This document shows positions 32,201 through 38,200 of a DNA stretch of 64,000 bases, in pieces (positions within the stretch are counted from its first letter, which is position 1; every line of letters begins with the position of its first letter). Position numbers: made by a program. The DNA is from Escherichia coli (lineage in GTDB: Bacteria; Pseudomonadota; Gammaproteobacteria; Enterobacterales; Enterobacteriaceae). The DNA is taken from the NCBI RefSeq assembly GCF_017348835.2, contig NZ_CP071375.1; one strand, written 5' to 3'.

Positions 32201-35200
32201 CGTTGGGCTACACCGACGCCGGTCTGGTGTTTTTAGGCGCAGGCGTTTTCTCATGGCTAAGCCTTGAACCGGTGATCTTGCAGCGTCTGCGCAGTTCGGG
32301 AGAATTACCCACGGCACTGCGGACATCACTCGGCATTCAGCTCGCTCCTGCGCTGGTGGCCTGTAGTGCCTGGCTGAGCGTCAACGGCGGCGAGGGTGAC
32401 ACGCTGGCGAAAATGCTTTTCGGTTATGGACTGTTGCAACTGCTGTTTATGCTACGTCTGATGCCATGGTATCTCTCCCAGCCATTTAATGCTTCATTCT
32501 GGAGTTTCTCGTTCGGCGTATCTGCACTGGCAACCACCGGTTTGCATCTGGGGAGTGGCAGCGATAATGGATTTTTCCATACACTGGCGGTGCCGCTGTT
32601 TATCTTTACCAATTTTATTATTGCAATACTGCTCATCCGTACTTTGGCGCTTCTGATGCAGGGAAAATTGTTAGTCAGAACCGAGCGCGCCGTTTTAATG
32701 AAAGCAGAGGACAAAGAATGATCATTCGTGACGAAAATTATTTTACTGATAAATATGAATTAACCCGCACACACTCTGAAGTACTGGAAGCGGTGAAAGT
32801 GGTTAAACCGGGTAAAACGCTGGATCTGGGCTGTGGCAATGGTCGTAACAGTCTTTACCTGGCAGCCAATGGTTATGATGTTGACGCATGGGATAAAAAT
32901 GCCATGAGTATCGCCAACGTCGAGCGCATTAAATCTATTGAAAATCTGGATAATTTACACACTCGGGTCGTTGATCTGAATAACCTCACATTTGCTGGAC
33001 AGTACGATTTTATTCTTTCGACTGTGGTGCTGATGTTCCTTGAGGCTAAAACCATCCCAGGGCTGATTGCCAATATGCAACGTTGCACGAAACCTGGCGG
33101 TTACAACCTGATTGTGGCGGCGATGGATACCGCCGATTATCCATGTACTGTCGGCTTCCCGTTTGCCTTCAAAGAGGGAGAATTACGTCGATATTACGAA
33201 GGCTGGGAGAGGGTGAAATACAATGAAGACGTCGGCGAGCTGCACCGCACCGACGCCAACGGTAATCGTATTAAACTACGTTTCGCCACGATGCTGGCAC
33301 GTAAAAAATGACCCGGTAAGAACAAAGCGCGTGAAAATTCCCCACGCTGAGATGGTTTACTGTTCTTCTTTTCGGTAAGCATATTTTTTATCGAAGGGAT
33401 GTGAAATTAATCACAGTAGTCGAAGTTTTTTAGCAGCTTAACTTACTGAAATTTAACTACTGATGATTGACTTAGCCCCTTTTTCGGCATTGACTATGTC
33501 GTCTGAAAAGGGGCTGAAAAATTTATTTTCACCAACACTTTTTTTGCCACAACACGAAGCGGCGCTTTTTGCTATAACTTAGAAAGTAATATAATCATCT
33601 CAGGAAACTATTCATGCGTACCACATCATTTGCGAAAGTTGCAGCTTTATGCGGCTTGTTGGCTCTGTCTGGTTGTGCCTCTAAAATCACCCAGCCAGAC
33701 AAATATTCTGGTTTTTTAAACAATTACTCTGATTTAAAAGAAACAACCTCGGCTACAGGTAAACCTGTTTTACGTTGGGTAGACCCGAGTTTTGATCAAA
33801 GCAAATATGACAGCATCGTCTGGAACCCAATCACTTATTATCCGGTACCGAAACCGTCGACCCAGGTAGGGCAGAAAGTTCTGGATAAAATTTTGAACTA
33901 TACCAACACCGAAATGAAAGAAGCGATAGCGCAGCGTAAACCACTGGTTACCACCGCTGGGCCGCGTAGTCTGATTTTCCGTGGGGCCATTACCGGTGTA
34001 GATACCAGCAAAGAAGGGCTGCAATTCTATGAAGTGGTTCCTGTTGCATTAGTGGTTGCGGGGACGCAAATGGCTACAGGCCATCGTACCATGGATACTC
34101 GCCTCTATTTTGAAGGTGAGCTGATTGATGCAGCGACTAATAAACCGGTTATCAAAGTCGTTCGTCAGGGCGAAGGTAAAGACCTGAATAACGAAAGTAC
34201 GCCAATGGCTTTCGAAAATATTAAACAAGTTATTGATGACATGGCGACCGATGCCACCATGTTTGACGTTAACAAAAAGTAGTTCCAGACGCGCCATCGT
34301 TAGATGGCGCTTTTTATCCGGTGCGCCGTAAAACCCCGTCCTTCAGGGCGGGGATATAAGGCGCGGTTTTCCACCTAACAGGTGTTTGCTGTTGTTCAAT
34401 GTATTGGCGGATGACGGATATTGGCGCACCTCCGCAGCTACTGGCAAAATAGCCAGGACTCCACAAAACGCCTTTGTAGTAATACCTGACTGCAATATCT
34501 GGTCGATCTCGTCGCAGTAACCTACCCGATACGCCTTTGAGGCTGTTTACCAGACTGGATATCGCCAGTTTGGGAGGTTAGTTAATTAACAAATGGACGT
34601 GATCTGGTTCGCCATCCATTTCAACCAGTTCAGCTTCAAAATCAGCACATACATTTGAAAAGTAACTGCGTAGTTTTTCTGTCGCGTCATGGTCAAAAAT
34701 CTGGCGTCGGTATTTGGTGACAAAGACCAGGTGAACATGCATCAGGGAAACACAATGCCTTCCACGCCGGATATCGGTTTCTTTTTTCACAGACCAAAGT
34801 ATCATTTGACCTGTGAAACGATTACAGGCATTTAAATTCCAGTTAAGACCAGGTGGTCAACAGGAGTGTGAAATGAGGCGCTTCGCAGGCGCATGTCGTT
34901 TCGTTTTCAATCGTGCTCTGGCACGTCAGAATGAGAATCATGAGGCAGGTAATAAATACATCCCTTACGGGAAAATGGCTTCCTGGCTGGTTGAGTGGAA
35001 AAATGCCACTGAAACGCAATGGCTTAAAGATTCTCCCTCACAGCCATTGCAACAGTCACTGAAAGACCTTGAGCGGGCTTACAAAAACTTCTTCCGGAAG
35101 CGGGCTGCTTTTCCCCGATTCAAAAAGCGGGGACAGAATGATGCATTCCGCTACCCGCAGGGCGTTAAGCTCGATCAGGAAAACAGCCGTATTTTTCTGC

Positions 35201-38200
35201 CGAAACTGGGCTGGATGGGCTACCGGAATAGCCGTCAGGTCACGGGTGTTGTGAAAAATGTCACTGTCAGCCAGTCCTGCGGTAAGTGGTACATCAGTAT
35301 TCAGACAGAAAGTGAAGTATCCACTCCGGTTCACCCTTCAGCATCAATGGTCGGGCTGGATGCTGGCGTGGCTAAACTCGCCACGCTGTCAGATTGCACA
35401 GTCTTTGAGCCTGTAAACAGTTTTCAGAAAAACCAGAAGACGCTGGCGAGACTTCAGCGACAGTTAAGCCGCAAGGTCAAATTCAGCAACAACTGGCAGA
35501 AGCAGAAACGCAAAATACAGCGACTGCATTCCCGTATCGCAAATATCCGCAGGGACTACCTTCACAAAGTCACAACGACCGTCAGCAAAAACCACGCAAT
35601 GATAGTCATTGAGGATTTGAAGGTCAGCAACATGTCAAAGTCAGCAGCGGGTACGGTCAGCCAGCCGGGGCGCAATGTCCGGGCAAAATCAGGTTTAAAC
35701 CGTTCGATACTGGATCAGGGCTGGTATGAAATGCGCCGCCAGCTTGAGTACAAGCAGCTCTGGCGTGGCGGTCAGGTGCTTGCTGTTCCGCCAGCGTACA
35801 CAAGTCAGCGTTGCGCGTGCTGTGGTCATACAGCGAAAGAAAATCGCCTGTCACAAAGTCAATTCAGATGCCAGGTATGTGGATATACAGCGAACGCCGA
35901 TGTAAACGGCGCTCGTAACATTTTAGCGGCGGGGCACGCCGTTCTTGCCTGTGGAGAGATGGTGCAGTCAGGCCGCCCGTTGAAGCAGGAACCCACCGAA
36001 ATGATTCAGGCGACAGCCTGAACGTAGCAGGGATCCACGTCCTTCAGGGCGTGGAGGATGTCAATATCGGTTTCTGTCAGCGATTAAATTCAACACCACG
36101 TAACAAACGCCTCCGGCAATTAATCCCCAGAACGCAGAACCAATCCCGACCAGCGTCAATCCACTTGCCGTTACCAGAAATGCCACCACCGCCGCGTCGC
36201 GCTCACGCTCATTATGCAGCGCCTGATACAAACTTCCGCCAATGGTACTCAACAGCGCCAGACCTGCCAGCATCTGGATCCAACTTACGGGCAGGGCAGC
36301 CATCATCCCGGTAATGGCACTACCAAACAGACCTGCGAGCAAATAGAAAATGCCTGCAACGGCAGCTGCCAGCCAACGTTGATCTTTATCCGGATGCGCT
36401 TCCGGGCTTTGGCAAATAGCCGCGGTGATTGCCGCAATACCGACGGAATAAACGCCGAAAGGGGAAAAAACCAGTGCCAGCAATCCAGTAAATACAATTA
36501 ATGGCGAAACAGGAGCCGAATATCCGGCGGCTTTCATTGCTGCGATACCCGGTGCGTTTTGCGATGCCATCGTCACCAGAAAAAGGGGGAGTGCAACGCT
36601 CAGGCTGTGAGCAAACGCAAAATCAGGGGTAATATAAGTGGGGAGAACGGGTTTAAAGACAACATCAGTTGTGACAACGTCACCTTGCGCGATAACGATC
36701 ACGATCCCAATAATCATCGCGGCAATTACCGCATAGCGCGGCGCAACGGCCTTGGTTGCCAGCCATACCAGCAACATACTGCCACACAACGTAAATTGAC
36801 CGTCCAGACTGGCAAACGCCTGTAAACCAAAGCGTAATAAAATCCCGGCAAGCATTGCCGCCGCAAGCGAGTGCGGAATAATGCACATCAGACGAGCAAA
36901 GAGTCCCGTTATGCCGCAGAGGACTATTAACGCGTTGGTGACAATAAAAACGCCGATGGCTTCGTTAAGTGTTAGTCCCTGCAATCCGGTGACCAACAAA
37001 GCCGCGCCAGGCGTTGACCATGCGGTGAGAACAGGTACGCGATACCATAATGTCAGAGCCAGCGTACTGACGCCCATTGCCAGCCCCAGCGCCGTCATCC
37101 AGCCAGAGATTTGTGCAGTGGTGGCTCCGGCGACAATCGCTGCTTGCCAGATTATTGCCGCTGAACTGGCGTAGCCAATTAATACCGCCAGAAACCCCGC
37201 CAGTAGCGTGGGTGGAGGAACAGAAAACAGACGCATAGTCACCTCGTGCGTTATAGCGTACAGGCACCGTAGCATTTGTCCGTTATAACGCACAAGTGAT
37301 AAACTTCCGTTTTGCCGGAGGAGTCGCATGGAAAATCTCGCTCGCTTTTTATCCACCACACTTAAACAACTACGTCAGCAGCGCGGCTGGAGTCTTTCGC
37401 GACTGGCAGAAGCGACGGGCGTTTCTAAAGCGATGTTAGGGCAGATTGAGCGTAATGAATCCAGCCCGACGGTCGCGACATTATGGAAAATTGCCACCGG
37501 GTTGAACGTGCCATTTTCGACATTTATTTCTCCGCCACAGTCCGCTACGCCTTCAGTTTATGATCCACAACAGCAGGCGATGGTGATCACTTCACTGTTT
37601 CCTTATGATCCACAACTCTGCTTTGAACACTTCTCGATTCAGATGGCACCTGGTGCAATAAGCGAATCGACGCCCCATGAGAAGGGGGTAATCGAACATG
37701 TCGTCGTCATTGATGGACAACTTGATCTGTGCGTTGATGGGGAATGGCAGAGCCTTAATTGTGGGGAAGGCGCTCGATTTGCTGCAGACGTCACGCATGT
37801 CTATCGTAATGGTGGGGAGCAAACCGTACATTTTCATTCCCTCATCCATTACCCGCGCAGTTAAGCGGGAAAACTATTTCGCAACGTCGCGCTTGTGGCT
37901 AAAATAGCCGCCATTTTTCAGCTACTGGATAAGAATGTGACCGTATCTTCTCATCGACTTGAACTGTTAAGCCCGGCACGCGATGCCGCCATTGCCCGCG
38001 AAGCTATTTTGCACGGTGCTGATGCTGTTTATATCGGCGGCCCTGGTTTTGGTGCCCGTCATAATGCCAGTAATAGCCTGAAAGATATTGCCGAGTTGGT
38101 GCCGTTTGCCCATCGTTATGGTGCAAAAATTTTCGTCACGCTTAACACCATTTTGCATGATGATGAGCTGGAACCCGCGCAACGGCTGATTACCGACCTC

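Follow-up and report, generated by a model that had tools for sequence, protein, structure and literature searches.

The analyzed DNA is a 64,000-nt stretch of Escherichia coli contig NZ_CP071375.1 (assembly GCF_017348835.2), hereafter called the window. Between 33.6 and 39.9 kb, its genes follow the order tehA-tehB-ydcL-[IS]-ydcO-sutR-ydcP, where IS denotes an insertion sequence. Judged by its sequence, the element between ydcL and ydcO is IS609 proper, of the IS200/IS605 family, with a disrupted transposase gene (tnpA) and an open gene for the nuclease TnpB (tnpB, or insQ). The features of the locus are listed below, with the strand in parentheses.

34311-34805 (minus): tnpA pseudogene (Y1 HUH transposase), with TAA at codon 76 and a 1-bp deletion at 34378, from translation and alignment with the O157 copy
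34314-34317 (plus): TTAT target motif in the flanking DNA outside the element; left cleavage and insertion site of TnpA and predicted target-adjacent motif (TAM) of TnpB
34318-36064 (plus): IS609 (IS200/IS605 family), 1,747 bp, without terminal inverted repeats and without a target-site duplication, from the empty-site comparison
34334-34354 (plus): left-end hairpin, CCCCGTCC-TTCA-GGGCGGGG, inside a longer imperfect stem at 34323-34364, from DNA folding
34813-36021 (plus): tnpB (insQ), 402 amino acids, GTG start, with RuvC residues D183, E267, and D363 and zinc-finger cysteines C334, C337, C353, and C356
35895-36061 (plus): predicted scaffold of the omega-RNA (right-end element RNA, reRNA), which overlaps the 3' end of tnpB and the right end of the element, from covariation
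36035-36055 (plus): right-end hairpin, CCACGTCC-TTCA-GGGCGTGG, then AGGATGTCAA up to the right cleavage site, TCAA
36061-36063 (minus): current ydcO stop codon (TGA), within the last IS609 bases, the native TAA being split by the insertion
36065-36080 (plus): predicted 16-nt guide, TATCGGTTTCTGTCAG, in the flank beyond the element, antisense to the 3' end of ydcO and transcribed by read-through

E. coli PE164 is 100% identical to the window across a stretch of about 2 kb around the element. When a 2,001-base query comprising the element and its flanks was used, K-12-derived strains (MG- and DH5a-derived) showed 98.5% identity, and further strains drawn from across the ranking, BL21(DE3) and K-12 derivatives among them, were 97.9 to 98.8% identical at this locus. 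Counting matches over at least 80% of this query, IS609 occupies the ydcL-ydcO position in 4,309 of 5,426 complete E. coli genomes (~80%); about 20% of the genomes, such as that of strain 500111 (L002), have no element and an intact ydcL-ydcO junction. The IS609 query finds a median of three matching places per complete E. coli genome, and a search with the hairpin core found no second IS609 in the window.

Much of this is on record. The annotation of MG1655 lists "insertion sequence:IS609" at 1503161-1504908, with yncK (b4578) as a pseudogene and insQ (b1432) as a "putative RNA-guided DNA endonuclease InsQ," and the RefSeq/PGAP annotation of PE164 lists tnpA as a pseudogene ("internal stop") and, after it, insQ as an "RNA-guided endonuclease InsQ/TnpB family protein." Since these entries already contain IS609, its broken transposase, and InsQ, both the object and its interpretation were known, and the locus carries little weight as a discovery. 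What the present analysis adds are the precise boundaries, the target TTAT, the consequence for the stop codon of ydcO, a second tnpA lesion, covariation support for the omega-RNA, the retention of tnpB while tnpA decayed by two routes, and a warning about rare alleles. The initial annotation had called the element "IS609-like"; its identity to K-12-derived strains and an MG1655 feature with the same ends allow it to be named IS609 itself. Identity to the reference, the ends, and the use of the target all agree with IS200/IS605 (IS609) membership. The Y1 HUH TnpA of the family is interrupted in this copy, which is still an IS609 member on account of its ends and identity to the reference, not of its TnpA.

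The boundaries were determined by exact extension from both flanks against the empty ydcL-ydcO junction. The empty site of strain 500111 reads ...GGCGCTTTTTAT|TATCGGTTTC... (TTTTTAT|TATCGG) and the filled site of the window ...TTTTTAT|CCGGTGCG...GGAGGATGTCAA|TATCGG..., giving the junctions TTTTTAT|CCGGTG... and ...GATGTCAA|TATCGG, with no duplication of the target. These ends agree with the IS609 annotation of K-12. The range first proposed, 34310-36062, had thus captured the right element, with its start 8 bases and its end 2 bases away from the positions found here (34318 and 36064). The right end ...GGAGGATGTCAA is common to the window and 12 loci, and a further plasmid copy (L016) ends in GGAGGGTGTCAA. 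The loci that share the right end come from Klebsiella, Salmonella, Providencia, Serratia, Aeromonas, Vibrio, and E. coli. The TnpB proteins of the plasmid-borne relatives are 51 to 95% identical, and the flanks diverge directly past the right end.

The tetranucleotide TTAT stands directly 5' of the left end in 6/6 independent IS609-family insertions, which identifies it as the insertion target; by the logic of IS605, it would also be the TAM of TnpB. At this locus, TTAT closes the U-tract of the intrinsic terminator that follows ydcL (GCGCCATC-GTTA-GATGGCGC-TTTTTAT; hairpin at 34291-34310), and in the empty state, the bases at the end of the terminator overlap the stop codon of the convergent gene ydcO. 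Because the insertion split the native TAA, YdcO, which ends in ...ADRNR-TAA in the empty site, ends in ...ADRNRY-TGA in the window, one tyrosine longer and closed by a TGA that the element supplies. In K-12, ydcO and IS609 overlap by 4 bp. The element had been described as lying directly against the ydcO stop codon; the adjacency is correct, but the element does more than abut the codon, which it splits and replaces.

Both ends carry subterminal hairpins of nearly the same sequence (left, CCCCGTCCTTCAGGGCGGGG at 34334-34353; right, CCACGTCCTTCAGGGCGTGG at 36035-36054), in direct orientation, 90% identical, and of the form CC(C/A)CGTCC-TTCA-GGGCG(G/T)GG. Folded as DNA, they reach -14.7 kcal/mol (left; z = -2.25) and -9.9 kcal/mol (right; z = -2.56) relative to shuffles, in agreement with the earlier observation that both are conserved. 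The exact 14-nt hairpin core occurs in only two places in the window, the two ends of the element; with up to two mismatches, there are four matches against 0.35 expected, a number reached by 0 of 100 shuffles.

Read from 34805, the tnpA frame runs MILWS...DHVHLLIN and then meets a TAA (plus-strand 34578-34580) after codon 75, where the intact IS609 of O157:H7, encoding a 143-residue TnpA, has TAT (Tyr) at codon 76. The stop immediately follows the HUH motif (H69-V-H71), so that the C-terminal half is lost, including the segment IRQYIEQQ, which we take to carry the catalytic tyrosine of the family. As this truncation removes the C-terminal part of TnpA, IS609 is non-autonomous here. The initial annotation had reported both the in-frame TAA and its consequence, and translation, together with the "internal stop" recorded for PE164, supports it on both points. 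It had overlooked that TAA is not the sole lesion: DNA alignment with the intact O157 copy reveals that 1 bp is missing at 34378, so that, in place of the final residue and the stop codon, the frame continues for 22 codons across the left end and stops at 34314-34316. An intact TnpA ortholog scores 145.7 bits against NCBIfam transpos_IS200 (cutoff, 55).

A sequencing error was considered as the source of the TAA and rejected, since the exact 35-mer containing it is found in 1,023 of the 5,426 complete genomes; an intact tnpA on resequencing is therefore not to be expected. The TAT version of the 35-mer is present in 4,892 of these genomes, other IS609 copies included. At ydcL-ydcO, tnpA is dead in 7/7 strains sampled, through two alternative primary nonsense lesions, namely, Tyr76->TAA (the window and CEC15) and Leu96->TGA (K-12, 1303, HCM-22C-2, Z1322HEC0003, and B379). 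Secondary lesions at the locus comprise an extra stop at codon 33, 1-bp and 5-bp deletions, and stop loss.

Like the window copy, the IS609 of K-12 MG1655 has the same insertion site and ends, a tnpA pseudogene, and an open tnpB of 402 codons, and both copies have divergent tnpA and tnpB genes whose start codons lie 7 bp apart. The two differ in the tnpA lesion (Leu96->TGA with stop loss in K-12, Tyr76->TAA in the window), in length (the window copy is 1 bp shorter, owing to the 34378 deletion), in the left-end hairpin (perfect in the window, with a G->A mismatch in K-12), and at eight amino acids of TnpB, including R136G and G195C. The IS609 of O157:H7 FRIK2533, inserted in a TetR-family gene, shares ~98% nucleotide identity, the same ends, and the TTAT target with the window copy, and its TnpB is 97% identical. 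Unlike the window copy, it has an intact 143-residue TnpA ("IS200/IS605-like element IS609 family transposase").

TnpB contains the Pfam domains HTH_OrfB_IS605, OrfB_IS605, and Cas12f1-like_TNB and scores 382 bits against NCBIfam guided_TnpB (cutoff, 100). Residues 3 to 376 align with the TnpB of ISDra2 (PDB 8BF8/8EXA; E=2.3e-54), with D183/E267/D363 opposite the catalytic D191/E278/D361 and the CxxC...CxxC zinc finger likewise aligned, and the catalytic triad and the four cysteines are invariant in 13 family members. The RuvC motifs and zinc finger read earlier from the 402-residue protein are thereby confirmed, in register with those of a characterized TnpB. IS609 TnpB has been purified by others among further orthologs (PMC12781874). 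Beyond that purification panel, a search of the IS609/TnpB, insQ, and ydcM literature returned no functional study of E. coli InsQ. Under the name ydcM (= insQ, K-12 ~1.505 Mb), the gene has served as a quantitative PCR probe at a copy-number peak of constitutive stable DNA replication (cSDR) in the Ter region of topA topB mutants (PMC6160223); the use of ydcM at this R-loop-dependent replication peak is a positional coincidence only.

The 3' end of tnpB and the right end of the element together form a conserved structure. RNAalifold, applied to positions 35875-36064 of the window and 12 relatives (13 sequences), returned a consensus of 36 pairs in six helices, with 94.6% of cells paired. The helices include the following.

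35895-99/35907-11 (plus): omega-RNA helix, RNAalifold consensus
35918-35923 with 36056-36061 (plus): long-range closing helix, just before the element end
35926-31/35937-42 (plus): omega-RNA helix, RNAalifold consensus
35956-63/35972-78 (plus): omega-RNA helix, RNAalifold consensus
36034-43/36046-55 (plus): right-end hairpin (helix 6), in which four pairs covary across relatives

Compensatory double changes occur at 10 pairs, some of them in the coding region by way of paired synonymous changes; one covarying pair, for example, is G-C in seven sequences and A-U in six. None of 500 column shuffles reached any of five measures of covariation, and sliding the partners by 1 to 3 columns lowered pairing to 41 to 56%. 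The scaffold sequence of the window, folded alone, gave a z score of -3.46, and all helices are intact in this copy. OMEGA (obligate mobile element-guided activity) systems are expected to encode a structured RNA in this region, and the window copy has a conserved structure there. At the element, no Rfam family scored above threshold, whether with gathering thresholds across the whole window or in permissive mode at 33000-38000; the only matches there, all sub-threshold (HgcC, sot0042, and RAGATH-18), fall on the scaffold segment. HgcC and sot RNAs have been described as transcripts overlapping tnpB 3' ends (PMC4615843). A guide RNA derived from the tnpB 3' end and right-end hairpin (~35900-36062) had been proposed. 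Covariation supports this proposal for the scaffold, at about 35895-36061; the guide itself would lie outside that range, at 36065-36080.

The guide is placed by the element boundary and the mechanism of TnpB (10.1101/2023.03.14.532601), and the window contains no other TAM-adjacent match to TATCGGTTTCTGTCAG. An exact 12-nt direct repeat, ATATCGGTTTCT, is present at 34771-34782, in the 5' part of tnpA, and at 36064-36075, where the last base of the IS is followed by 11 nt, the beginning of the predicted guide. The copy inside tnpA, which thus contains an 11-nt match to the guide, is preceded by GCCGGA and lacks the TTAT TAM. The repeat is probably coincidental, with ~0.1 expected by chance in the stretch.

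We read the locus as a resident IS609 in which tnpA is dead and the tnpB/omega-RNA module would have a homing or retention role, and we put the probability of this reading at roughly two in three. A single old insertion into the terminator U-tract of ydcL, 3' of TTAT, would have split the ydcO stop codon and then been inherited vertically in most E. coli. The tnpA lesions prevent excision or transposition in cis, and with both hairpins intact, the element could at most be mobilized in trans by the TnpA of another IS609. The last ~170 nt of tnpB and the right end would provide the omega-RNA scaffold, and read-through into the flank would append the 16-nt guide TATCGGTTTCTGTCAG. In analogy to IS605, TnpA would excise the top strand at TTAT| and TCAA|, and the TnpB-omega-RNA complex would recognize TTAT plus TATCGGTTTCTGTCAG, that is, the empty ydcL-ydcO donor joint formed upon excision. 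A cut at this joint would then allow homologous recombination to restore the element. In published work, TnpA and TnpB share the TAM and TnpB cuts donor joints, retaining the transposon (10.1101/2023.03.14.532601), and TnpB processes its own mRNA into omega-RNA (PMC10278001). By such analogy, we infer that the TnpB of IS609 is a nuclease and that the omega-RNA is expressed and processed. At the species level, the module may be functional; in this clone, it is possibly impaired.

The history of tnpB bears directly on this reading. An uninterrupted 1,209-nt tnpB open reading frame (ORF) with all seven catalytic and zinc-finger residues was found in 8/8 E. coli copies examined. Ratios of nonsynonymous to synonymous substitution rates (dN/dS) between pairs of E. 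coli copies are 0.14 to 0.49, and the variable codons of seven at-locus alleles comprise 29 nonsynonymous and 21 synonymous changes, against a neutral expectation of 78% nonsynonymous (binomial p=0.0015). Disruptive lesions number four to six in the 432-bp tnpA versus none in the 1,209-bp tnpB (Poisson P(0), 1.4e-5 to 5e-8). Given the open ORFs, the dN/dS values, the codon ratio, and this imbalance of lesions, tnpB has been under moderate purifying selection after the loss of tnpA, as seen in a small sample of seven at-locus alleles, to which gene conversion from other IS609 copies may have contributed. The same figures speak against regarding the whole element as a decaying relic, with a tnpB that is open by chance or recent history and non-functional in this lineage through G195C and R136G. 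A relic would not be expected to show zero stops or frameshifts in eight tnpB copies next to four to six lesions in a gene three-fold shorter, a nonsynonymous-to-synonymous ratio significantly under the neutral one, a retained triad and four cysteines, and RNA helices that are all intact in the window copy. It would account for the loss of tnpA in all strains sampled at the locus, for a dN/dS of 0.2 to 0.5 instead of <0.1, for rare substitutions at an invariant glycine and a conserved basic residue, and for the inactivity of IS609 in K-12 mutation accumulation lines, in which its transposition was never observed (PMC5009759). On balance, we hold the relic explanation to be doubtful; it may be true for a clone of 13 genomes even if it is wrong species-wide.

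That clone is the one to which the window belongs, and it supplies several of the points that weigh against a working homing module. The window TnpB departs from the consensus at R136G and G195C, and each of these alleles is confined to 13 of 5,426 complete genomes. G195 lies 12 positions beyond the catalytic D183, and none of 12 relatives, with identities as low as 51%, departs from glycine there; ISDra2, the TnpB homologue 8IAZ, and LaTranC likewise have a glycine at the equivalent position. At position 136, the window allele has G and the others have R, K, or T. The 13-genome pattern fits a recently relaxed constraint, and the window copy may be catalytically impaired. Further such points concern the element at large. 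A dN/dS of ~0.4 is well above what we expect for typical core genes. A promoter search of the element revealed no convincing sigma-70 promoter for tnpB or the omega-RNA, with one weak minus-strand site, fewer than in shuffles. Finally, a dead tnpA means no excision, leaving homing without a substrate unless another IS609 provides TnpA.

Because G195C and R136G fall at conserved positions, the nuclease activity of this allele is uncertain. The description of TnpB as "apparently intact" therefore holds for its open ORF and not at the level of individual residues, and the window allele would be a poor choice for a cleavage assay. A search for deep-mutational-scanning data on the ISDra2 residue matching G195 found none in the main text consulted.

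The fixed position of the element raises the question of whether tnpB and the omega-RNA have been domesticated, either for TldR-like RNA-guided DNA binding or regulation or through an antisense effect on the ydcO 3' end. The chromosomal position is shared by ~80% of E. coli, tnpA was lost via two nonsense alleles with tnpB under purifying selection, the guide region runs antisense to the 3' end of ydcO, the element gives ydcO its stop codon, and TnpB-derived transcription factors have been documented elsewhere (PMC10705468). Against this stand several points, and domestication is very unlikely in our view. The RuvC triad is complete, unlike that of nuclease-dead TldR; the guide is the flank that the point of insertion dictates, which is so for every IS605 element; the element is missing from ~20% of genomes, in which the ydcL-ydcO junction is intact; and the dN/dS of 0.2 to 0.5, together with element-level selection (mobilization in trans by other IS609 copies, a median of three places per genome), explains the retention of tnpB equally well. 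In addition, no insQ phenotype was found in the literature searched. A nuclease-dead, TldR-like derivative in particular was rejected, since the window TnpB retains its catalytic triad, and its guide corresponds to the insertion-site flank. Only a shade less improbable is the broader proposal that selection keeps tnpB and the omega-RNA open across most of E. coli after tnpA loss, be it for a host role (RNA-guided DNA targeting, say, or antisense control where ydcO ends) or for the homing of copies mobilized in trans. If it were true, K-12 insQ would offer a natural and tractable example of a TnpB heading to domestication.

Returning to the proposed homing module, its architecture can be compared with that of better-known family members. 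ISDra2 of Deinococcus radiodurans (PDB 8BF8, 8EXA, and 8H1J) resembles the window element in domain order, in the D/E/D residues of RuvC, and in the zinc finger, and also in a guide-RNA scaffold that overlaps both the 3' end of tnpB and the right end of the element and in a flank-supplied guide, both predicted in the window. Relative to this distant homologue, IS609 TnpB has a 15-amino-acid insertion after E267. The target of ISDra2 is TTGAT; unlike ISDra2, the window IS609 has divergent tnpA and tnpB genes and TTAT as its target. IS608 of Helicobacter pylori is the mechanistic model for IS200/IS605 TnpA; its hairpins are subterminal and imperfect, it inserts 3' of a tetranucleotide that is not duplicated, and its right end closes with TCAA. 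The window element, like IS608, has subterminal hairpins, no target duplication, and a TCAA right end, but it differs from IS608 in its target (TTAT versus TTAC) and in a tnpA that is inverted relative to tnpB, as in IS605.

Some of the plasmid-borne relatives show features of their own. In L014 (Klebsiella variicola plasmid NZ_CP151724, ~818-900) and L016 (Salmonella IncY plasmid NZ_CP149177, ~814-900), the left end lies ~76 bp upstream of tnpB, so that these are tnpA-deleted, tnpB-only derivatives with both ends intact. The tnpB 3' end of L010, from a plasmid of Klebsiella sp. PL-2018, has an internal duplication in which GGCAGGGCATGCCGTAT is repeated (alignment columns 70-112); the ORF ends prematurely, and ~29 nt are added in the omega-RNA scaffold region. 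Among the 13 plasmid IS609-family copies fetched, 5 (L006, L009, L011, L013, and L015) lie at most ~0.6 kb from a toxin-antitoxin pair of the RelE/RelB or Phd/RelE type, a proximity that could reflect a preference for AT-rich terminator targets or clustering in plasmid accessory regions.

Elsewhere in the window and unrelated to IS609, two RNAs scored above the Rfam gathering score, both on the minus strand: the small RNA RydC at 22599-22662 (92.5 bits) and a sok antitoxin RNA at 23222-23373 (108.1 bits), the latter presumably marking the hokB/sokB locus.

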